Positions 1-17,485 of a DNA stretch of 64,000 nucleotides are shown in pieces; within the stretch, counting starts at the first letter, position 1, and every line of letters starts with the position of its first letter. Location of the stretch: the NCBI GenBank assembly GCA_963765575.1, contig CAVXWZ010000005.1, positions 64,001-128,000 on the forward strand, in the 5' to 3' direction. Made by a program: the position numbers and the translations under genes. The DNA is from an uncultured cyanobacterium (GTDB lineage Bacteria > Cyanobacteriota > Cyanobacteriia > PCC-6307 > Cyanobiaceae). The notes beneath the pieces were generated by a model. That model searched no databases and had not been told where the DNA came from. It was given only the letters and a program-made list of their open reading frames with translations.

Positions 1-891
1 GGCGGGCTGGATGGATCCCTTCAGCCCCTGCGTGAGCGGCTCGGCGCTGCGCTGGCCGAACTCCAGGACCTGGCCCGTGATCTCGATCGCTACGGCGGTG
101 GCCTGGAGAGCGACCCCGAGAGCCTCGATCAGCTGCAGCAGCGCATCGCCGATCTGCGTGCCCTGGAGCGGCGCCAAGGCCTGGAGCTGCCGCAGCTGAT
201 CGCCCTGCGCGATCGCCTGCGGGAGCAGCTGGCCCCGGGCGGCCCCGCCGCCGAGCTGGAGCAGCTGCAGGCCGAGGAGGTCCGCTGCCGCACCCGCCTG
301 GACCAGCTCCAGGCCTCCCTCAGCGCGGCCCGGACAGCGGCCGCCGCCGTCCTCCAGGGCCAGTTGATGGCGGCCCTGCGGCCCATGGGCCTGGCCCAGG
401 TGCGCTTCGCGGTGGCGATCGAGCCCTGCGACCCCGGCCCGGAGGGGGCTGATGCCGTGCAGTTTCTGTTCTCCGCCAACCCCGGTCAGCCGCTGGCGCC
501 GCTGGTGGAGGTGGCCTCGGGGGGGGAGATGAGCCGCTTTCTGCTGGCGCTGAAAACCTGCCTGGCCGAGGCGGACCCGCACGTCACCCTGCTGTTCGAC
601 GAGATCGATGCCGGCGTCAGTGGCCGGGTGAGTGGGGCAATGGCGGCCCTGTTGCAGCGCCTGGCCCAGCGTCGCCAGGTGTTCTGCGTCACCCACCAGC
701 CCCTGGTGGCCGCGGCGGCCGACCACCATTTCCAGGTGTCCAAGCAGGTGCTGGATGGCGTCACCCACATGCGGGTGTCCCACCTGCGGGACACCCGCGC
801 CCGCCAGGCGGAGCTGGCGGAGCTGGCCGGTGGCGATGCCGACGCCGTGCACTCCTATGCCGCCAGCCTGCTGGCGCGTCAGCCGAGCTGA
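1..891 (+). CDS. recN: DNA repair protein RecN, 3' part (truncated by window edge)
   Basis: Frame open from base 1; C-terminal ABC motifs SANPGQPLAPL..VASGGEMSRFLLALK, LLFDEIDAGVSG, CVTHQP. Confidence 0.95.
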   Translation, partial: GGLDGSLQPLRERLGAALAELQDLARDLDRYGGGLESDPESLDQLQQRIADLRALERRQGLELPQLIALRDRLREQLAPGGPAAELEQLQAEEVRCRTRLDQLQASLSAARTAAAAVLQGQLMAALRPMGLAQVRFAVAIEPCDPGPEGADAVQFLFSANPGQPLAPLVEVASGGEMSRFLLALKTCLAEADPHVTLLFDEIDAGVSGRVSGAMAALLQRLAQRRQVFCVTHQPLVAAAADHHFQVSKQVLDGVTHMRVSHLRDTRARQAELAELAGGDADAVHSYAASLLARQPS

Positions 892-2657: not shown

Positions 2658-2699
2658 GGAGCCCAGTCAGACAGCCCCATCAGCGCAGTAGCAGCGCTG

Positions 2700-3200
2700 C
2701 GCGGCTCCGCGCTCGAGAGCGGGGACGGCAGCCACAGTTTTGTCGCTCAGGTGACGCTCTACGCCCGTGCCCTCGGCGTTGCCCTGGCCCAGAAGGCCTA
2801 CGACACAGGTGAATCGAGCGAGCGTGCAGCCCTCAAGGAGCTGCTCAGCACCCTTGAGCTGGAGGGTGTGCTGATCCAGGCGGATGCGCTGCACACCACC
2901 CAGGCGTTTTTCACTGGTGCCTCTCCCAGGGGGCCGACCTCCTCCTGACCGTCAAGGGCAACCAACGCACCCTCCATCGCCAGATCCGCAGCCTGTTTCA
3001 GGGTAAGCGCAGGATCCCTTTCACCGCAATGGATCACGAGAAACGGCATGGGCGCGACACCACCTGGATCCTGCGGGCCAGGGAAGCACCGGCGCACATC
3101 AAGGAGAACTGGCCCGGCTGCAGCTGGATCGTCGAGGTGGTCACCACCGTGATCAGCAAGGGCAAGCGGACCGAGCGTGCCCACCACTTCCTCACCAGTG
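2700..3200 (+). mobile_element. ISAs1-family transposase remnant, truncated at both ends, -1 shift at TTTTT ~2907-2911
   Basis: ELLSTLELEGVLIQADALHT then GADLLLTVKGNQRTL..DHEKRHGR..WPG..HHFLTS, typical ISAs1 motifs; no start and no C-terminus. Confidence 0.8.
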
Positions 3201-3440
3201 GCAGCAGTGGCGATTGGCCTGACACCGAATCCCCATTCATCCTGGATCAGCATTCAATTTATTGGATGATTATTCAACTGCTCTGATCATTATCAGTGAG
3301 CTGCTGTAAGGATAATTTCATCTGATCAAACAGCATCAAATACATGGGCGTTGGCCAGGGTCGAGATGAACTTCCCTGGTAACACCTACCAGCTCCCTCC
3401 GGGCCCGTATACTTCAGTATTACCAATTTTCACGAATTCA

Positions 3441-4848: not shown

Positions 4849-4974
4849 CGACGCCCGGCGCCGCAGGGACGACCCTAGGAATTCTGTCAGCGTGACGCGC
4901 CTGGCTGGCTGGCCTGTCGGCTCGCATTCCTACACTCCACGCCAGCACTACGGCTGAGCGGGTTGGGAAACTCC

Positions 4975-6528
4975 ATGAGACTGTGGCTTGTTGCTCTGCT
5001 GATGGCGGTCAGTGTGCTTCTGATCGGTCCGGTTGCTGCTGTGCCGTCTGGTGCGCCAGTGATTCTGGGGGATGAAACCCTGTTTCGGATCGAGGCCCAG
5101 GTGGCCTCGTTTGCTCCGGATTTTCGGGCTCAGGTGATTTCCGATCGCATCACAAAACTGGCAAAGAATACAGATATCAGCGTCGATACAATCACGGTTG
5201 TTGACAATCCAAAAGTTGGTTCAACCGATCTGCGAGCTGGGGACCTGACGCTCATCACGATCGTGGATGCGGATGCATTGGCGGCCACGAGAGAACGCGA
5301 TGAATTGGCACGTGACTATGCCGAAAAAATCAAGAATGCGATCAATCAATTTCGCAAATCCTATAGCTTCAATAGCATTATCATCGGCATTGTCAGCACT
5401 CTCGGCCTGACGGTGGCGTTTGTTGCCAGTTTGATTGGCATTTCCAGGTCCACACCATTGATTTCGGGGCGTCTGAGGCGCTGGTGTGGCGTGCGTATTG
5501 GTGGCTTGCGCCTGTTCAACACCCAGATCCTCTCGGCTGATCGTGTTGCTGATCTGATCACCGAGATTCTGCGGATCGTGCGCTTTACTCTCTATCTGAT
5601 TCTTGTTTATATCTATATAAATCTGGTGCTTAGTTTCTTTCCCTGGACCATGGGATTGGCACGGCTTCTAATTGGCTACTTGAAAACTGCTGTGACGACA
5701 GTGGGAGCTGGAGTTGTTGACTATCTTCCCAGCTTCTCTTTTCTGATTGTGATCATTGTGATCACCACGTATTTTTTGAAGCTGATCCGCTTCTTTTTTG
5801 CCGAAATTGAATCTGGCGATATCGTGATCGAATGGTTTTATCAGGAATGGGCCAAGCCCACCTATAAGCTCATCCAGTTTCTTGTGCTGGCATTTGCTGT
5901 CACAGTTTCTTTCCCCTATCTGCCAGGCTCCAGCACCCCAGCTTTCCAGGGGGTTTCGATCTTTCTTGGGGTTTTGGTTTCACTGGGTTCTTCCTCGGCG
6001 ATCTCCAACATCTTTGCGGGCATCATTCTCACGTACACCCGCGGCTTTCTAGTTGGAGACCGGGTGCAGATCGCCGACACAGTGGGTGATGTGGTCGACA
6101 AAACCCTCTTTGTCACGCGTGTGAGGACGATCAAGAATGTGGTGATTACTATTCCAAATTCGGCTGTTCTCAGCAGTCACATCATCAACTTCAGTGCCGC
6201 TGGTGCTGCCCCGCACGCGGCCCCCCTGCTGCTGCACACCACCGTCACCCTGGGCTACGACATTCCCTGGCGAACCGTGTATGACGTGCTCATCCGGGCT
6301 GCCGAGGGCACCTCGGCGATCCTGGGCCAGCCCGCCCCGTTCGTGCTGCAAACGTCCCTGGACGACTTCTATGTGCACTACGAACTGAATGCCTACACCG
6401 AGGATCCCGGTGTGATGGCGCGCACCTATTCCGAGCTTTTCGAACGCATCCAGGATCTCTGCCAGGAGGCTGGGATTGAGATCCTCTCCCCCCATTTCCG
6501 CGCCCTGCGCGATGGCAGCCCACCATGA
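4975..6528 (+). CDS. Small-conductance mechanosensitive channel (MscS family) with exported N-terminal domain
   Basis: SLGSSSAISNIFAG, GDRVQI, ITIPNS, LGYDIPW, GIEILSPH; several TM helices. Confidence 0.9.
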   Translation: MRLWLVALLMAVSVLLIGPVAAVPSGAPVILGDETLFRIEAQVASFAPDFRAQVISDRITKLAKNTDISVDTITVVDNPKVGSTDLRAGDLTLITIVDADALAATRERDELARDYAEKIKNAINQFRKSYSFNSIIIGIVSTLGLTVAFVASLIGISRSTPLISGRLRRWCGVRIGGLRLFNTQILSADRVADLITEILRIVRFTLYLILVYIYINLVLSFFPWTMGLARLLIGYLKTAVTTVGAGVVDYLPSFSFLIVIIVITTYFLKLIRFFFAEIESGDIVIEWFYQEWAKPTYKLIQFLVLAFAVTVSFPYLPGSSTPAFQGVSIFLGVLVSLGSSSAISNIFAGIILTYTRGFLVGDRVQIADTVGDVVDKTLFVTRVRTIKNVVITIPNSAVLSSHIINFSAAGAAPHAAPLLLHTTVTLGYDIPWRTVYDVLIRAAEGTSAILGQPAPFVLQTSLDDFYVHYELNAYTEDPGVMARTYSELFERIQDLCQEAGIEILSPHFRALRDGSPP

Positions 6529-8231: not shown

Positions 8232-8366
8232 GGGCCAGGGGCAATGAGCACAAGTGCGCACCACCGCGGTACGCGCTTATCGCTATTCAACGCTACCGTT
8301 ATGAACGAACGCGCCAGGGCCCACCAGGCTCTCGCCCGTTCCCTGTCCTCCGTCCCCTTTCCTGTC

Positions 8367-9449
8367 ATGGCGTCAACGTCCCTGGCTCCCACCCGGAGCC
8401 ACCCCTGGGAGTCCTTCAAGGACTGGATCACCAGCACCGACAACCGCCTCTACATCGGCTGGTTCGGGGTGCTGATGATCCCCACCCTGCTGGCGGCGGC
8501 CAGCTGCTTCATGATCGCTTTCATCGCCGCTCCCCCCGTCGACATCGACGGCATCCGCGAACCGGTGACCGGCAGCCTGCTCTACGGCAACAACATCATC
8601 ACCGCCGCGGTGGTGCCCAGCTCCAACGCCATCGGCCTGCACTTCTATCCGATCTGGGAGGCCAGCAGCCTCGATGAGTGGCTCTACAACGGCGGCCCCT
8701 ACCAGCTGATCATCTTCCACTTCCTGATCGGTATCTATGCCTATCTGGGCCGCGAGTGGGAGCTGAGCTACCGCCTGGGCATGCGTCCCTGGATCGCCGT
8801 GGCCTACAGCGCTCCGGTGGGCGCCGCCACCGCCGTGCTGCTGGTGTACGCCATCGGCCAGGGCAGCTTCTCCGACCCCATGCCCCTGGGTATTTCCGGC
8901 ACCTTCAACTTCATGCTTGTGCTCCAGGCTGAGCACAACGTGCTCATGCACCCCTTCCACATGCTCGGTGTGGCCGGTGTTTTCGGCGGCAGCCTGTTCT
9001 CGGCCATGCACGGTTCTTTGGTGACCAGCTCGCTGGTGCGGGAGACCACCGAAGCCGAGAGCCAGAACCGCGGCTACAAGTTTGGTCAGGAGGAGGAGAC
9101 TTACAACATCGTGGCCGCCCATGGCTATTTCGGCCGGCTGATCTTTCAGTACGCCTCCTTCAACAACAGCCGCAGCCTGCACTTCTTCCTGGCCGCCTGG
9201 CCGGTGGTGGGGATCTGGTTCGCCACCCTGGCGGTGATCAGCTTCTCCTTCAATGTCAACGGCTTCAACTTCAACCACTCGGTGCTCGATCACCAGGGCC
9301 GGGTGATCAACACCTGGGCCGACGTGCTCAACCGCGGTGGTCTGGGCATTGAGGCCATGCACGAGCGCAACACCCACAACTTCCCCCTCGATCTGGCGGC
9401 CGTGCCGTCGGAGCTCATGCCCCTCAGCGCCCCCTCGATCCCTGCGTGA
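8367..9449 (+). CDS. psbA: Photosystem II D1 protein, low-oxygen D1' isoform
   Basis: 360 aa; D1' signature A80, L158, L186, A286; Y161, D170, E189, H190, H332, E333, H337, D342, A344 retained; E130. Confidence 0.95.
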
Positions 9450-9533
9450 GGCTTTGAACCTCGCCCAGGCGGGGCCCGGTTCCACACCGGGCCCATGTCC
9501 CCTGTCCATCGTCAACCCATTGCCGGCCGCGTC

Positions 9534-10202
9534 ATGACCCAGCTCTTGTTCACGCTCAGGGCCAGCAACTGGCCGCCGGCAGCACGGCTGGCGCTTGCCG
9601 CGCTGGGCGCCCTGCTCGCTGGGGCGCTGCTGAGCCTGCAGCCCGCAGCCGCCCTGGCTGCCACCACACCAGCACCCGCCACAGCGCCGGTGGATCCAGC
9701 CAGCCTGGCCCGGGCGGTGGACCAGATGGAGCAGCTCGACCGCATGCGCATCTCCCTGGCCTCCAGCCTGGAGGGCAGCAGCGAGGAGCCCACCATGGAC
9801 ACCATGCGTGAGGTGTGCATGCCCGTGGGCAAGCGGGCGATGGCCATCGGCAAGCAGAACGGCTGGAGCGTGCGCCAGGTGGCCAGCAAGGCCCGCAACC
9901 CCGACCATGTCCCCGCCGGCGCCCAGGAGAGCCAGGTGATCGATCTCTTCGCCAGACACCCCGAGATCACCGGCCTGTGGGAGCCTGCCAGCGCCGACCA
10001 GGCAGCCGGTGTGACCTACTACCGCCGCATCGACGTGCAGCCCAGCTGCCTGGCCTGCCATGGCAGCAAGGACAGCCGACCCGCCTTCGTCAAGGACAAG
10101 TACCCCGCGGACAAGGCCTTCGACTTCAAACCCGGTGACCTGCGCGGCATGTACGCCGTGTTCATCCCCGAGGTGCAGGAGGTTCTGCGGCAGGCCGGCT
10201 GA
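9534..10202 (+). CDS. Tll0287-like (DUF3365) exported c-type heme protein
   Basis: Signal peptide, EPT..TM.EVC.PVG, K.RNP, CLACHG heme motif, YPAD.AF.F.PGDLRG. Confidence 0.85.
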   Translation: MTQLLFTLRASNWPPAARLALAALGALLAGALLSLQPAAALAATTPAPATAPVDPASLARAVDQMEQLDRMRISLASSLEGSSEEPTMDTMREVCMPVGKRAMAIGKQNGWSVRQVASKARNPDHVPAGAQESQVIDLFARHPEITGLWEPASADQAAGVTYYRRIDVQPSCLACHGSKDSRPAFVKDKYPADKAFDFKPGDLRGMYAVFIPEVQEVLRQAG

Positions 10203-10276
10203 CGCCCCGCGGCCAGGATCGGCTCAGGCCGCCGTCCAGCCGCAGGGCTGCAGCCCTGGGTTCAGGTGGTTCAGCA

Positions 10277-10969
10277 TCAGGCGTGCCCTCGCTGGCGGGA
10301 TGGGTGGGCCGGGCCAGGCCGGCGCCAGAGGCCCAGCCACTCATCGCGGCGCTGGGCGATCGAGCCCCTGGCTGGCTCCCAGATCTCCACCACCAGTCCG
10401 GCCTGCTGCGCCAGGTCGATGAGTTCGTGGGGATCGCTGCCCCAGGGCGGGCCACCGGCCCGGCCGTGGCACCAGAACAGGCCCAGCAGCCAGCCGCCGG
10501 GCTGCAACAGCGCCGCCACCGTGGCCATGTAGGCCGCCCGCAGGTGGGGATCGATGGCGCAGAAGCAGGTGTGCTCCACCACCCCCTGCAGACTCCCGGG
10601 CCCGAGCCCCGCGGCCTCCAGTGCCGCCGGATCGAACAGGTCGGCCTGCAGCCAGCGCAGCCCGGGGTGCTCGCGGCCGTGCAGCCGCTGGGCCTCCCCC
10701 ACGGCTTCGCCGCTGAAATCCAGGCCTACCGCGGCGAAGCCCAGCTCCGCCAGCAGGGCGGCTTCATGGCCGCGGCCGCAGCCGGGCACCAGCACCGGGC
10801 CGCCCGGTGCCGGGGAGCGGCCGTCGTGGCGCAGGAACTCCGCCAGGGGCGGTGTCGGCTGGCCCAGTTCCCAGCCATCGCCGCCCTCGCGGTAGCGCCG
10901 GTCCCAGCGCTCCGGTTCCGCTTGCGGCCCCGCAGCGGGCGCACCAGGGGGAAGCGGACGGGGCGACAT
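10277..10969 (-). CDS. TPMT/HOL-family SAM-dependent thiol/halide methyltransferase
   Basis: W..RY..G..GWELGQPTPPL, LVPGCGRGHE, GLDFS, EHTCFCAI, GGPPW. Confidence 0.85.
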   Translation of the reverse strand: MSPRPLPPGAPAAGPQAEPERWDRRYREGGDGWELGQPTPPLAEFLRHDGRSPAPGGPVLVPGCGRGHEAALLAELGFAAVGLDFSGEAVGEAQRLHGREHPGLRWLQADLFDPAALEAAGLGPGSLQGVVEHTCFCAIDPHLRAAYMATVAALLQPGGWLLGLFWCHGRAGGPPWGSDPHELIDLAQQAGLVVEIWEPARGSIAQRRDEWLGLWRRPGPAHPSRQRGHA

Positions 10970-11011
10970 CGCAGCTAGTGTGTAATGACGCAACCATTCT
11001 ATGCCGAAACA

Positions 11012-11025
11012 CTCATGACCATGAG
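11012..11025. promoter_or_regulatory. Palindrome CTCATG-AC-CATGAG in the divergent methyltransferase/sqr promoter, candidate operator
   Basis: Perfect 6-2-6 inverted repeat in the AT-richer intergenic gap. Confidence 0.35.
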
Positions 11026-11082
11026 ATCCCGGCCCCCTGCCCGCGTCCGTCTCGGCGGCTCCCGCCCCCCCAGGTGCTGGCC

Positions 11083-12393
11083 ATGACCCTCCCTTCCCGG
11101 GGCCACCTGCCGGTGCTGATCGCCGGCGGTGGCACCGCTGGCATCACCCTGGCCAGCTGGCTGCGCAAGCTCGACCCCGAGCTCGAGATCGCCATCATCG
11201 AGCCCTCACCCTTCCACGACTACCAGTCGGGCTGGGTTCTGGTGGCCGGTGGATTCATGGCCGCCGACGCCACCCGGCGCCGCGAACGGGATGTGCTGCC
11301 CGCCGGCGTGGACCTGATCCACAGCAAGGTGGTGGGGTTCGATCCCGAGCACAACGCCGTCGAGCTGATCGGCGGCCAGCGCCTCAGCTACGGGGTGCTG
11401 GTGGTGGCCCTGGGCATCGAGCTCAACTGGACCGCCGTCGAGGGTCTGGCCCAGACCCTGGGCCATCACCATGTCACCAGCATCTACAGCCGCCGCACGG
11501 CCCGTTACAGCCGCCGCTGTTTCGAGGAGTTCCAGGGCGGCACGGCCGTGTTCACCCAGCCGGCCACGGCGATCAAGTGCGGCGGGGCGCCCCAGAAGAT
11601 CATGCACCTGGCCCACCAGCAGTTCCAGGCCCGCAGCGGCGTGGGGGTCAACAGCCGCACCCTGTTCTGCACCGCCCAGGCCAGCCTGTTCCCGGTGCAG
11701 GCCTACAGCGACAAGATGGTGGAGATCGCCCAGCGCCACCATTCCGAGGTGCGCTACCACCACGACCTGGTGGCCGTGGACGGCGAGGCCGGCCTGGCCA
11801 CGTTTTGCGTCCAGGAGCCGGGGCAGCGCCAGCGCCTGGAGACGCTTCACTTCGACCTGCTGCATGTGGTGCCGCCGATGTCGGCGCCGCCGGTGGTGGC
11901 CGCCAGCTCCCTGGCCGTTCAGCCCAGCGGCGACCAGCCGGCGGCCGCCACTGGTGGTTGGGTGGAGGTGGACCCCCGCACGGCCCGCCACGTGCGCTAC
12001 GGCAATGTGTTCGCCATCGGTGATGTGGGCTCCTTCCCCACCGCCAAGACGGCGGCGGCGGTGCGCAAGCAGGCGCCCGTGGTGGCGGCCAACGTGCTGG
12101 CGGCACTCCGGGGTCGGGCCCCCGATTGCGCTTACGACGGCTATAGCGCCTGCCCGCTGATCACCAGCGACCACACGGTGATGATGATGGAGTTCGACTA
12201 CAGCAAGCAGCCGGTCAGCAGTTTTCTGGTCAATCCGGTCAAGGAGCGCTGGTTTGCCTGGCTGCTCGAGCGCTTTGGCTTCCCCTGGATCTACTGGCAC
12301 CGCATGCTCAAGGCCAAACCCCATGAGGCGATCTATCTCCAGCCGTTCCAGGGTCTGGCCCGGCGCCTGGGCCTGATGCGTTGGCAGGCCTGA
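11083..12393 (+). CDS. sqr: Sulfide:quinone oxidoreductase, type II-like
   Basis: GGGTAG FAD motif, IKCGGAPQK and YSACPLIT catalytic cysteines, LLHVVPPM, FAIGD..PTAKTAAA. Confidence 0.88.
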   Translation: MTLPSRGHLPVLIAGGGTAGITLASWLRKLDPELEIAIIEPSPFHDYQSGWVLVAGGFMAADATRRRERDVLPAGVDLIHSKVVGFDPEHNAVELIGGQRLSYGVLVVALGIELNWTAVEGLAQTLGHHHVTSIYSRRTARYSRRCFEEFQGGTAVFTQPATAIKCGGAPQKIMHLAHQQFQARSGVGVNSRTLFCTAQASLFPVQAYSDKMVEIAQRHHSEVRYHHDLVAVDGEAGLATFCVQEPGQRQRLETLHFDLLHVVPPMSAPPVVAASSLAVQPSGDQPAAATGGWVEVDPRTARHVRYGNVFAIGDVGSFPTAKTAAAVRKQAPVVAANVLAALRGRAPDCAYDGYSACPLITSDHTVMMMEFDYSKQPVSSFLVNPVKERWFAWLLERFGFPWIYWHRMLKAKPHEAIYLQPFQGLARRLGLMRWQA

Positions 12394-12935
12394 GATCCCC
12401 GCTGCGATCGTTGGCCGTCGCCGGGGCCCTGCTGGCGGTGGTGGGCTGCGGCCCCCGCCTGCCCCGGGCGGCCTCCGATCAACAGCTGGCCGCCGAGGTG
12501 GAGCGCCGCTATGCCGGCTTCCGCCAGCGCCTGTTCCCCGCCGTGCCCGACATCAGCGTGGCCGCATGGGACGCCGCCGCAGCACCAGCAGGGCCTGGTC
12601 AGCCGCTCCTGCTGGTGGATGTGCGCGCTGCCCACGAGCAGGCGGTGTCGATGCTGCCGGGGGCGATCGGCCGCCAGGCCTTCGAGCGCGAGCGCGAGCG
12701 CTACCGCGAGCACCTGATCGTGCCTTACTGCACCATCGGCCTGCGCAGCGGTCTCTATGCCCGGCAGTTGATCGAGGAGGGCTTTGCGGCTCGCAATCTG
12801 GCCGGCAGCGCCCTGGCCTGGGCCCACGCCGGCTTGGCCTTCGAGGCTGACGGCAAGCCCACCCGGCGGGTGCATGTCTACGGAGCCGACTGGAATCTGC
12901 TGCCGGCTGGCTACGAGCCCGTGCTGGGCCGTTGA
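12381..12935 (+). CDS. Rhodanese-domain protein, putative lipoprotein
   Basis: LLVDVR..E..VSMLPGA, YCTIGLRS active loop, NLAGS..AW; lipobox-like LAVVGC; start uncertain. Confidence 0.8.
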   Translation: MAGLRSPLRSLAVAGALLAVVGCGPRLPRAASDQQLAAEVERRYAGFRQRLFPAVPDISVAAWDAAAAPAGPGQPLLLVDVRAAHEQAVSMLPGAIGRQAFERERERYREHLIVPYCTIGLRSGLYARQLIEEGFAARNLAGSALAWAHAGLAFEADGKPTRRVHVYGADWNLLPAGYEPVLGR

Positions 12936-13343
12936 TCAGGCCTGCCCCGGCAGCCAGCGGCGCAGCAACTGCTCCTGCTGCACCAGCCGCAGCCGGTTGG
13001 CCTCGCTGGGATCGCTGGCGTAGCGCTGCTGCAGGTCGTTGAGCAGGTGACGCATGCTCCTCTGTTCCAGGGGGTGGTGGGGCAGGGGTACCGGTTCGAG
13101 GCGCAGCTCCTCCAGGGGCACCGTCTCCAGCAACTCCATCCCTCCCGCGCCCGGCCCGTGGATGCGCACGTCCGCTGTCGGGGGTGCCAGGAAGGAGAGC
13201 AGTTCGAAGGGGAACACCACCCGTTCGAGGAAGAACTGATCGGGTCCGCAGCAGCGGAGCACGACCATCACATCCCTGGCGTTGCGGTAGCCATAGGCCG
13301 TGTACGGGTCGCTGGGGGGCTCGGGGCTGGTCCGGCGCGTCAT
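12936..13343 (-). CDS. DUF1830-domain protein with a C-terminal helical extension
   Basis: YRN....VVLRC.G...FFLERVVFPFE.L.F.AP pattern. Confidence 0.7.
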   Translation of the reverse strand: MTRRTSPEPPSDPYTAYGYRNARDVMVVLRCCGPDQFFLERVVFPFELLSFLAPPTADVRIHGPGAGGMELLETVPLEELRLEPVPLPHHPLEQRSMRHLLNDLQQRYASDPSEANRLRLVQQEQLLRRWLPGQA

Positions 13344-13443: not shown

Positions 13444-14313
13444 TCAGCCCAGCTCCAGGCAGGCCAGTCCGTAGACGTCGCGGAGGGGCGCCGTCGGTGG
13501 CCGGCCGCGGTACATGCGCTGGGTGCGGGCGACGGGCTGGAAGCCCAGCCCCTCAAACAGCGCCGCCGCCGCCGGGTTGGCCCCTGGGGCATCGATCAGC
13601 ACCACCCCCGGATGGCGGTGGATCAGTCCGCTCAGCAGCTGGGTCGCCAGGGCCGGGCTGTCGGCCAGCAGCGGGCCGATGCGCCAGCCCTCCCCCCGGC
13701 GCAGCAGGCAGGGGCGGATCCGTCCGAAGCCCTGGCACTGCCCGCCGCCGTCCACCAGGGTCAGCACCGTGCCGGCCGGGTGCTGGAGCCAGTCGGCCAG
13801 GAAGTGGGGCCGGGGACTGGCTGCGCGCTGGGCGTCGTAGGCCTGCACCGCCGCCGTGGGGGTCGCCGCTCCCTGCAACAGCCGCGCCGGCCCGTGCGCT
13901 GACGGGGGGCCGAGGCCGTGGCCATCGCTGAGCAGCTGCCAGCGGCTGGTGGTGGAGGCCGGTTCGAACCCCCACTCGGCGTAGTCGTCCACCCGGTCCA
14001 GGGCCGCCTCCAGGCCGATGCAGGGGAGGTCGGCCAGGTGCTCAAGGGCGTGCCGCCAGAGCGCCACGCCATAGCCCCGGCCGCGCTGCTCTGGCCGCAC
14101 CAGAAACAGGCCGACGAAGCCGTAGGCGGCGTTGTAGCGAACGCCGGCGATGCAGCCCACGGGCTCCTGGTCCAGCCAGCCCAGCCACAGCCCCTGGCGG
14201 TCGGTGTGGCGGTAGATGGCCACGTCGCCCGCCCCAGGGGTGAAGCCCTCGGCCCGGGCCCAGGCGGTCACCAGCGGGATGTGACGTCGCTGCAGCGCTC
14301 GGATGGTCAGCAC
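13444..14313 (-). CDS. GNAT-family N-acetyltransferase
   Basis: FVGLFLVRPEQRGRGYG acetyl-CoA motif, RIGPLLAD, C-terminal ACLELG. Confidence 0.85.
   Translation of the reverse strand: MLTIRALQRRHIPLVTAWARAEGFTPGAGDVAIYRHTDRQGLWLGWLDQEPVGCIAGVRYNAAYGFVGLFLVRPEQRGRGYGVALWRHALEHLADLPCIGLEAALDRVDDYAEWGFEPASTTSRWQLLSDGHGLGPPSAHGPARLLQGAATPTAAVQAYDAQRAASPRPHFLADWLQHPAGTVLTLVDGGGQCQGFGRIRPCLLRRGEGWRIGPLLADSPALATQLLSGLIHRHPGVVLIDAPGANPAAAALFEGLGFQPVARTQRMYRGRPPTAPLRDVYGLACLELG

Positions 14314-14437: not shown

Positions 14438-17485
<3,048 letters not shown>

Follow-up and report, generated by a model that had tools for sequence, protein, structure and literature searches.

Low-oxygen forms of psbA, the gene for the D1 protein of photosystem II, are found near sqr, which encodes sulfide:quinone oxidoreductase (SQR), in 15 of 44 genomes, with Group 2 or 3 psbA a few genes from sqr and SQRs of types I, II and VI reported (Grim and Dick, 2016, PMC5061849). 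In Synechocystis PCC 6803 the psbA1 gene (slr1181) for the variant D1' is followed by the rhodanese gene slr1184 and petC2, which are induced under microoxia, and the Acaryochloris cluster AM1_0448-0451 likewise joins a rhodanese and petC to D1' (PMC5295598). The photosystem II of Thermosynechococcus that contains PsbA2 is linked to Tll0287 (PDB 5B82), a standalone, exported haem c protein with a CXXCH motif and a distal Cys that is tied to Group 3 D1 (10.1101/2023.02.13.528314; 10.64898/2026.02.01.703092), and standalone members of the Tll0287 class are thought to be redox proteins (10.64898/2026.02.01.703092). Here a locus of this kind is described from an uncultured member of the Cyanobiaceae (assembly GCA_963765575.1, contig CAVXWZ010000005.1), within a stretch of 64,000 nucleotides, the window, that covers contig positions 64,001-128,000 of the forward strand. 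The locus is best read as a picocyanobacterial version of a low-oxygen D1'-Tll0287-SQR cluster known from other cyanobacteria, which in one Cyanobium clade has moved to the interval between recN and uvrA; its most likely role, which appears fairly probable on genomic grounds, is microoxic sulfide detoxification that protects oxygenic photosynthesis.

Positions are window coordinates unless prefixed by a contig (C1, C4, C5, C8 and so on), while designations of the form L0xx or L1xx stand for loci of relatives. The original prediction placed six contiguous open reading frames of named families at 8367-13343, and all six are there and intact according to Pfam and NCBIfam scans. With the predicted operator that lies among them they are:

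8367..9449, plus strand: psbA for D1' (Group 3 D1), 360 amino acids, recognised by signature residues and TIGR01151
9534..10202, plus strand: exported c-type haem protein of the Tll0287 type (sCache_heme, PF11845), alternative start at 9495
10277..10969, minus strand: S-adenosylmethionine (SAM)-dependent halide/thiol (anion) methyltransferase, 230 amino acids, PF05724, recognised by sequence and fold relatives
10998..11017, no strand: predicted ArsR-type operator TATG-N10-CATG, recognised by motif score, within the 113-bp divergent methyltransferase/SQR spacer
11083..12393, plus strand: type II SQR, 436 amino acids, with C166 and C357, closest to human SQOR
12381..12935, plus strand: single-domain rhodanese lipoprotein, lipobox C23, active-site loop C117-TIGLR, PF00581
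12936..13343, minus strand: DUF1830 protein (PF08865) with a C-terminal extension, a likely passenger with a paralog on C4

The first gene encodes D1', as had been proposed, carrying the defining residues A80, L158 and A286 (Sicora, 2009, as cited in PMC4408414); the three other psbA copies of the genome are standard, with G80, F158 and T286. The full Mn4CaO5 ligand and TyrZ set is kept (D170, E189, H332, E333, D342, A344, H337, D61, Y161, H190), together with E130 and P173, while G171P, F186L, M293F and A336T are changed. The D1' signature is present in 15 of 15 family sequences aligned, and these 15 group as a single clade (98%) next to three D1' from outside the picocyanobacteria (93% SH-like) and apart from the standard D1s of the genome, in a FastTree tree of 22 rows built without named reference sequences, in which a fourth D1'-like row falls outside the Group 3 grouping. 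Position 171, which adjoins the Mn ligand D170, is Pro in the window and in 2 of 14 family loci, Ala in 3 and Gly in 9, and among 14 further named loci it is Pro in 8, Ala in 4, Gly in 1 and unread in 1. In Thermosynechococcus PsbA2 the exchange P173M in the same loop is reported as a main functional determinant (10.1101/2023.02.13.528314), and by analogy G171P may have a parallel effect.

The naming of the second gene as a Tll0287-like haem protein is likewise confirmed, with PF11845 at 90.8 bits, above cut-off, a match to PDB 5B82 at E 8.6e-58, and a CLACH motif (CXXCH) plus distal Cys. The protein belongs to the standalone class, with a signal peptide (read by eye) and no signalling domain. 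Of 151 family genomes, 24 contained Tll0287, with 21 full-length copies in other genomes; a Bdellovibrionia record (L113) holds a Tll0287-like gene (46%) without any gene of the cluster.

Type II SQRs are eukaryotic SQOR-like enzymes with two redox cysteines and a Tyr that replaces the FAD-linked Cys of type I. The flavoprotein of the locus does belong to the SQR family, as had been claimed, but is not of the type I that serves the cyanobacteria known to run photosynthesis on sulfide. Among solved structures it comes closest to human SQOR chains (E 4e-84), C166 and C357 aligning with the human cysteine pair; the match to the type I SQR of Aquifex is partial (E 8e-10, where a true type-I-like enzyme gives 3.5e-98), and window-type SQRs show SIY or SNY where type-I-like enzymes carry SVC. 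By these features the window SQR is classed as type II.

Gene neighbourhoods in relatives indicate which of these genes belong together. Stretches of 20 kb were compared around 20 Tll0287 matches in other family genomes, a split copy and six further matches that were short or weak being excluded. They contain psbA in 17 cases, DUF3122 in 15, SQR in 11 (plus one fragment), ArsR in 11, persulfide dioxygenase (PDO) in 9 and the methyltransferase in 5; the rhodanese lipoprotein, DUF1830, GNAT and uvrA each occur once. In a phylum sample Tll0287 was present in 17 of 250 non-picocyanobacterial genomes, and the 18 loci contain a DUF3122-like gene in 11 cases, a type-I-like SQR in 8 and D1' in 4. DUF3122, a secreted protein, is the most constant neighbour of D1'/Tll0287 in both samples, has back-to-back promoters in common with psbA and is a candidate partner of Tll0287. 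Judged from this synteny, the conserved core that recurs across genomes is D1'-Tll0287-SQR; its version with type II SQR is present in about one sixth to one fifth of the family sample, and the D1' codon pattern in 31 of 151 genomes. The predicted low-oxygen and sulfide role of these three genes is thus supported by signature residues and synteny. Their linkage in relatives stood up, but that of all six genes is limited to one clade, and the proposed six-gene cassette did not: it is complete in 0 of the 20 family loci and in 2 of 24 named loci (23 of them cyanobacterial), both of the same clade.

The locus is not a single transcription unit, because its gene directions read ++-++- and methyltransferase and SQR are divergent; more than one unit is present. 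A sigma-70 scan detected neither a promoter-like site nor a terminator between the genes. The six genes have a GC content at third codon positions (GC3) of 0.85-0.90 against a genome median of 0.89 and therefore are not recent foreign DNA, and a plasmid origin is unsupported, since all plasmid matches to the SQR fell below 60% identity and came mainly from heterotrophs. Near-identical pieces (0-4 differences per 150-750 bp) occur in 4 of 4 public DNA runs compared, some of them crossing the psbA/Tll, SQR/rhodanese and rhodanese/DUF1830 junctions with no piece covering the whole stretch, so that the locus is not an assembly artefact. The runs are labelled marine, freshwater sediment, macroalgae and marine sediment metagenome, and the best-matching one may be the source sample.

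How the core came to its present site can be followed from the flanking features:

1..891, plus strand: 3' part of recN, which begins before the window (C5:63203-64891), left marker of the insertion interval
8243..8262, minus strand: apparent remnant of a lost divergent DUF3122 gene, its opening 6-7 codons, marking the left boundary of the moved D1' unit
8290..8299, no strand: conserved promoter core ACGCTACCGT, putative back-to-back -10 hexamers
13444..14313, minus strand: GNAT acetyltransferase, accompanying DUF1830 and not the D1' core
14438..17485, plus strand: uvrA, right marker of the insertion interval

The first of these is presumably recN, from its recognisable N-terminus. The genes had been assigned to the core backbone between recN and uvrA, and both markers do flank them, but recN stops at 891, which leaves 7.5 kb and about seven genes between it and the locus. 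In three congeners the gap between the markers is only about 2-3.5 kb and reads recN-SDR-(glycine zipper)-rhodanese lipoprotein-uvrA, with a contiguous D1'-Tll-SQR about 1.1-1.3 Mb away by contig coordinates, and with GNAT and DUF1830 elsewhere, about 6 kb apart in two of the three. On this comparison the recN-uvrA interval is a variable insertion site. Two loci, L095 and L099, show the complete window order with one ICMT-family gene added, and variants of it occur in L031, L091, L093 and L102, where L102 is without the methyltransferase, and L091 and L102 are without psbA in the stretch covered. The gene orders compared mark the six-gene arrangement as a clade-level mosaic and not one old cassette. 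Two further clade members (L098, L101) at the same recN interval hold Tll0287 with no psbA match after the ABC gene, so D1' can be missing. Record titles suggest sediments, mats, wetlands and lakes for the closest loci, where sample codes are presumably habitats. Within the window the interval also holds a frameshifted transposase scrap at 2697-3286 (GC3 0.65), presumably ISAs1-like by its motifs, and an MscS-family channel gene at 4963-6528 (GC3 0.62, local GC 0.50), which was not seen at the site in the relatives mapped and is, by composition and position, a recent insertion.

In 15 of 24 anchored relatives the position of 8243..8262 is the ATG of an opposite-strand DUF3122-type open reading frame of 128-187 amino acids, and the core at 8290..8299 offers TACCGT toward psbA and TAGCGT toward the lost DUF3122 as putative -10 hexamers. 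A palindrome, TGAGCA-N4-TGCTCA, fixed 31 nt before the D1' -10 box, was considered as an operator, occurring before D1' in 11 of 14 promoters and in 8 of 15 test loci against 15 of 2572 controls. It was rejected because in those 15 anchored loci the right half serves as start codon for the divergent DUF3122 gene; it is decayed in the clade members that lost DUF3122 (L031, L093, L099, L104). On sequence grounds the palindrome is a relic that marks the move of the D1' unit, not regulatory evidence, and the unit appears to have been cut from its divergent DUF3122 partner and then settled before a resident rhodanese.

For the rhodanese lipoprotein and DUF1830 the predicted identities hold, but not their membership in a working cassette. 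The rhodanese reaches 22.2 bits with PF00581, exactly at cut-off, has a six-residue Cys loop, and shows YCTIG[LV]RS in 15 of 15 close copies. It is present in 14 other family genomes, in none of which is SQR within 1.5 kb, and in the three congeners it stands directly before uvrA with the module absent; by this distribution it is an ancestral resident gene before uvrA. Each of the 6 clade members examined preserves the 13-nt overlap of this gene with SQR, the start codon being GTG, TTG or ATG, and the rhodanese is therefore now probably co-transcribed with sqr. DUF1830 and GNAT are, from their placement in relatives, passengers that arrived together from elsewhere.

A predicted common regulation rests on a motif trained on 17 PDO promoters of other genomes only, with the consensus TTTATGCGGCTATGCTCATA, a TATG-N10-CATA dyad around a -10 hexamer. 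Among the 2572 upstream regions of this genome the motif ranks its two pdo, its two arsR, DUF3122 and cydA at the top, and the methyltransferase/sqr spacer reaches 11.5 bits against a 99th percentile of 10.4, the same position scoring 17.4 bits in L095 and 19.9 in L099. That percentile is exceeded by 16 of 16 arsR upstream regions (5 being sites outside the training set) and 6 of 23 sqr regions, with D1 promoters mixed (5 of 29); regions of the rhodanese lipoprotein (0/10), DUF1830 (0/6), GNAT (0/9) and uvrA (0/10) did not exceed even the 95th. The predicted operator is probably bound by an ArsR/SmtB protein encoded in trans at C8:4214-4567 and C1:166242-166583, of which the alpha2 Cys aligns with that of YgaV, a second conserved Cys lying outside the aligned part. 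A loose form of the box, written in IUPAC (International Union of Pure and Applied Chemistry) code, was discarded as uninformative, as it hit 122 of the 151 genomes, AT-rich ones that lack the system among them.

For the methyltransferase, comparisons of sequence and of fold both lead to halide/thiol methyltransferases as the closest matches (E 3e-29 to 2e-17, TM about 0.75, model pLDDT 85), such as Arabidopsis HOL1 (3LCC), Tulasnella HMT (9H04), Paraburkholderia HMT (8AJP) and radish HTMT, well ahead of the thiopurine S-methyltransferase TPMT, for which the cut-offs are missed (TIGR03840 27/223 bits, PRK13255 26/213 bits). The motifs LVPGCGxG, FCA and GPP and two N-terminal Trp are present, and a scan with NCBIfam family models gave no Mdd match for this protein or for its frequent ICMT-family neighbour. 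By family, the product of 10277..10969 is thus classed as an anion (halide/thiol) methyltransferase, and such enzymes act on halides, HS- and SCN- (PMC8453949, PMC2752461). All 35 full-length copies of the family sample outside this genome (E <1e-70) were examined, several of them truncated at contig ends. Eleven have D1', Tll0287, SQR, PDO, rhodanese, cydAB or acsF2-ho2-hemN2 within 6 kb, one of these a rhodanese only, against a baseline of 144 of 2553 own genes (5.6%) under the same rule, and 0 of 5 more distant copies are near low-oxygen or sulfide markers; the binomial P of 2e-6 overstates this linkage because kin are not independent. Linked copies come in varied gene orders and on several branches of a quick tree that includes Tll-selected rows, with 7 label changes against 16.2 in shuffles, at least 4 being forced by well-supported branches. 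Both copies of this genome sit in low-oxygen/sulfide islands, and an ICMT/PEMT-family membrane methyltransferase lies within 600 bp of the methyltransferase in 14 of 50 rows. Two homologs of 319 amino acids (P0022, P0097) carry an extra PF14833 domain, either a fusion or a chimeric gene call.

Elsewhere the genome also encodes PDOs, rhodaneses, TauE, two cydAB sets and acsF2-ho2-hemN2, with PDO, TauE and ArsR on contigs other than that of the window, a sulfide-handling gene content unusually rich for a picocyanobacterium of 2.7 Mb. A second low-oxygen/sulfide island at the start of a contig (C8:1-17000) contains DUF4079, a Tll0287 paralog (73%), petC, an inward-rectifier K+ channel, an SQR with several frameshifts, ArsR, a frameshifted PDO, rhodaneses, TauE, DUF3122, cydAB, an ICMT-family gene and a second halide/thiol methyltransferase (69%); its frameshifts may reflect decay or assembly errors. 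In 7 of the 20 family loci (L032, L037, L038, L040, L041, L043, L048) the K+ channel gene (PF17655; C8:1868-2812 in this genome) and SQR are transcribed divergently. On C1, acsF2-ho2-hemN2 stands with a divergent ArsR/SmtB-like gene (C1:155195-158982), which is not called ChlR because related proteins score as ArsR/SmtB. The same contig carries a second, standalone sqr-type ArsR gene with the predicted operator (C1:166242-166583). A third, intact type II SQR (C1:195585-196787), 44% to that of the window and without predicted operator, is probably a housekeeping copy, since similar DNA occurs in 5 of 5 relatives searched. More PDO-rhodanese(-TauE) sets, and the second cydAB with a rhodanese and a DUF3122 fragment, are at C8:318564-322181, C2:603081-604190 and C11:796019-799500.

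From the observed gene identities, residues, synteny and motif statistics, a scheme of expression, regulation and chemistry can be inferred. At an oxic/sulfidic interface, under microoxia and sulfide, D1' would replace D1 and water splitting would continue, all ligands being kept, with the exported Tll0287 haem protein acting as redox partner. The type II SQR would convert HS- to persulfide and reduce plastoquinone, and the PDOs, rhodaneses, TauE and sulfide-tolerant cytochrome bd encoded elsewhere would complete a mitochondria-like, O2-requiring detoxification. A trans-encoded ArsR/SmtB repressor may control sqr, pdo, cydAB and itself through the one predicted operator, and the head-to-head methyltransferase would be a probable extra sulfide or thiol sink, turning HS- into methanethiol and volatile methyl compounds. 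Detoxification of sulfide with SQR is described for PCC 7002 (PMC7042703), where polysulfide induced one psbA and petC (PMC12466478). Several observations weigh against this scheme. With the ArsR-type motif the D1' promoter of the window reaches only 1.4 bits, so that co-regulation of D1' and sqr is unsupported; the sqr site is itself modest and is absent in L091 and L093, and the ArsR reaches 37/155 bits, far under the BigR cut-off. At the same site SQR is deleted in L031 and cut to a remnant in L093, and the linkage is therefore dispensable. Finally, 24 of the 35 family methyltransferase copies are without a low-oxygen or sulfide neighbour, kin again not being independent, and the methyltransferase is near Tll0287 in 0 of the 18 non-picocyanobacterial loci.

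Sulfide-driven anoxygenic photosynthesis would use the same core differently, with SQR electrons passing via plastoquinone and cytochrome b6f to photosystem I for growth, D1' throttling photosystem II and Tll0287 serving as the cytochrome of a sulfide-oxidising system. Reduction of the quinone pool is common to all SQRs, a second petC is present in many related loci, PCC 7002 fixed CO2 on sulfide via SQR (PMC12466478), and a role of Tll0287 in an H2S-oxidising system has been proposed (10.1101/2023.02.13.528314). The window SQR is nevertheless of type II, whereas the SQRs validated for cyanobacterial anoxygenic photosynthesis are of type I (PMC5061849; PMC11304991), and it is because of this that detoxification is likelier; in 8 of the 18 non-picocyanobacterial loci the SQR next to Tll0287 is type-I-like. 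With all Mn ligands retained by D1', and with PDO and cytochrome bd of related loci requiring O2, growth by anoxygenic photosynthesis is improbable here. Still less credible is one selected and co-regulated cassette of all six genes with rhodanese lipoprotein and DUF1830 as working members, even though the order is complete in two clade members and varied in four, and the overlap with SQR makes co-transcription of the rhodanese probable. This order is limited to one clade and has three opposed transcription directions, the rhodanese is beside SQR in none of 14 other family genomes, and the DUF1830 and GNAT upstream regions are without the motif above the 95th percentile. The lipoprotein would also face the periplasm or lumen, whereas a type II SQR without signal peptide would deliver persulfide on the cytoplasmic side.

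A stronger alternative, possible but on balance rather unlikely, takes only D1'-Tll0287(-SQR) as functional and the methyltransferase as a chance neighbour in a hotspot, like the rhodanese, DUF1830 and GNAT, its substrate being a halide, thiocyanate, selenide or an unrelated organic thiol. The many copies away from sulfide genes, the promiscuity of the enzyme family (PMC8453949), the unrelated genes gathered by the interval (MscS, insertion-sequence scrap) and the clade member L102, without the methyltransferase at the site, all speak for it. It does not sit well with linkage in different orders, beside Tll0287, PDO, acsF2-ho2-hemN2 or cydAB, nor with the placement of both own copies in low-oxygen/sulfide islands or the predicted operator in the methyltransferase promoter spacer. 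Going beyond detoxification by the core, the locus may point to a sulfide-responsive ArsR regulon in benthic and chemocline picocyanobacteria that couples type II SQR to the divergent methyltransferase, converting part of the sulfide to methanethiol and perhaps, via the ICMT-family enzyme, to dimethylsulfide, while D1' with a remodelled 171-173 loop sustains photosystem II. This proposal is speculative and, taken whole, unlikely, but if true it would reveal an undescribed H2S methyltransferase family and a new volatile-sulfur source among oxygenic phototrophs. Small cells of the Cyanobium type are dominant in many chemoclines, soda lakes and sediments; should the enzyme methylate HS-, picocyanobacteria would add a methanethiol source that has not yet been counted. 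Variants that naturally lack SQR at this site allow a comparative test of whether D1' is a sulfide adaptation.

The SQR-PDO-rhodanese-TauE pathway of heterotrophs and mitochondria, with type II SQR (PMC11304991), is an established route of sulfide oxidation, from which the locus differs in that its SQR is joined to a photosystem II gene. Related loci combine type II SQR with PDO, rhodaneses, TauE and an ArsR. Compared with the psbA-sqr proximity of Grim and Dick (2016), whose main text does not contain 'Cyanobium' and whose sections consulted, supplements apart, do not discuss Tll0287 or a methyltransferase, the locus adds a picocyanobacterial case. The original prediction knew of no description with an added methyltransferase and rhodanese. 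The Synechocystis psbA1 cluster does hold the rhodanese Slr1184 and also Slr1183, a class I SAM methyltransferase (PDB 2kw5) with a weak profile match (E 2.6e-8, where halide/thiol methyltransferases give 1e-29 to 1e-17), but the precedent is only partial: Slr1183 is not an ortholog of the window methyltransferase, the genes there are co-oriented, and Tll0287 and SQR are unnamed in the parts of PMC5295598 consulted. Relative to Thermosynechococcus, Tll0287 lies directly downstream of psbA in the window, D1' keeps P173 but has G171P, and the adjoining SQR is of type II. The methyltransferase is 27-30% identical to known halide/thiol methyltransferases and differs from them by a His in the DY/EH motif and a Trp at the position of Y172 in 3LCC. 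MddA, MddH and MddM1/2 share with it a proposed H2S detoxification by S-methylation, which is sulfide-induced in their case (PMC12904073), but are, to judge from the NCBIfam scan, probably of other families. A literature search found no link of halide/thiol methyltransferases to sqr or psbA and, supplements apart, no description of the picocyanobacterial cluster or the type II swap; 'psbA' is absent from the main text of two picocyanobacterial genomics papers (PMC13588713, PMC9361551). The association of D1', Tll0287 and SQR as a core is already known, and what distinguishes this locus from the described clusters is the type II SQR, G171P/A, the predicted operator and, most of all, an anion methyltransferase that has been recruited repeatedly.

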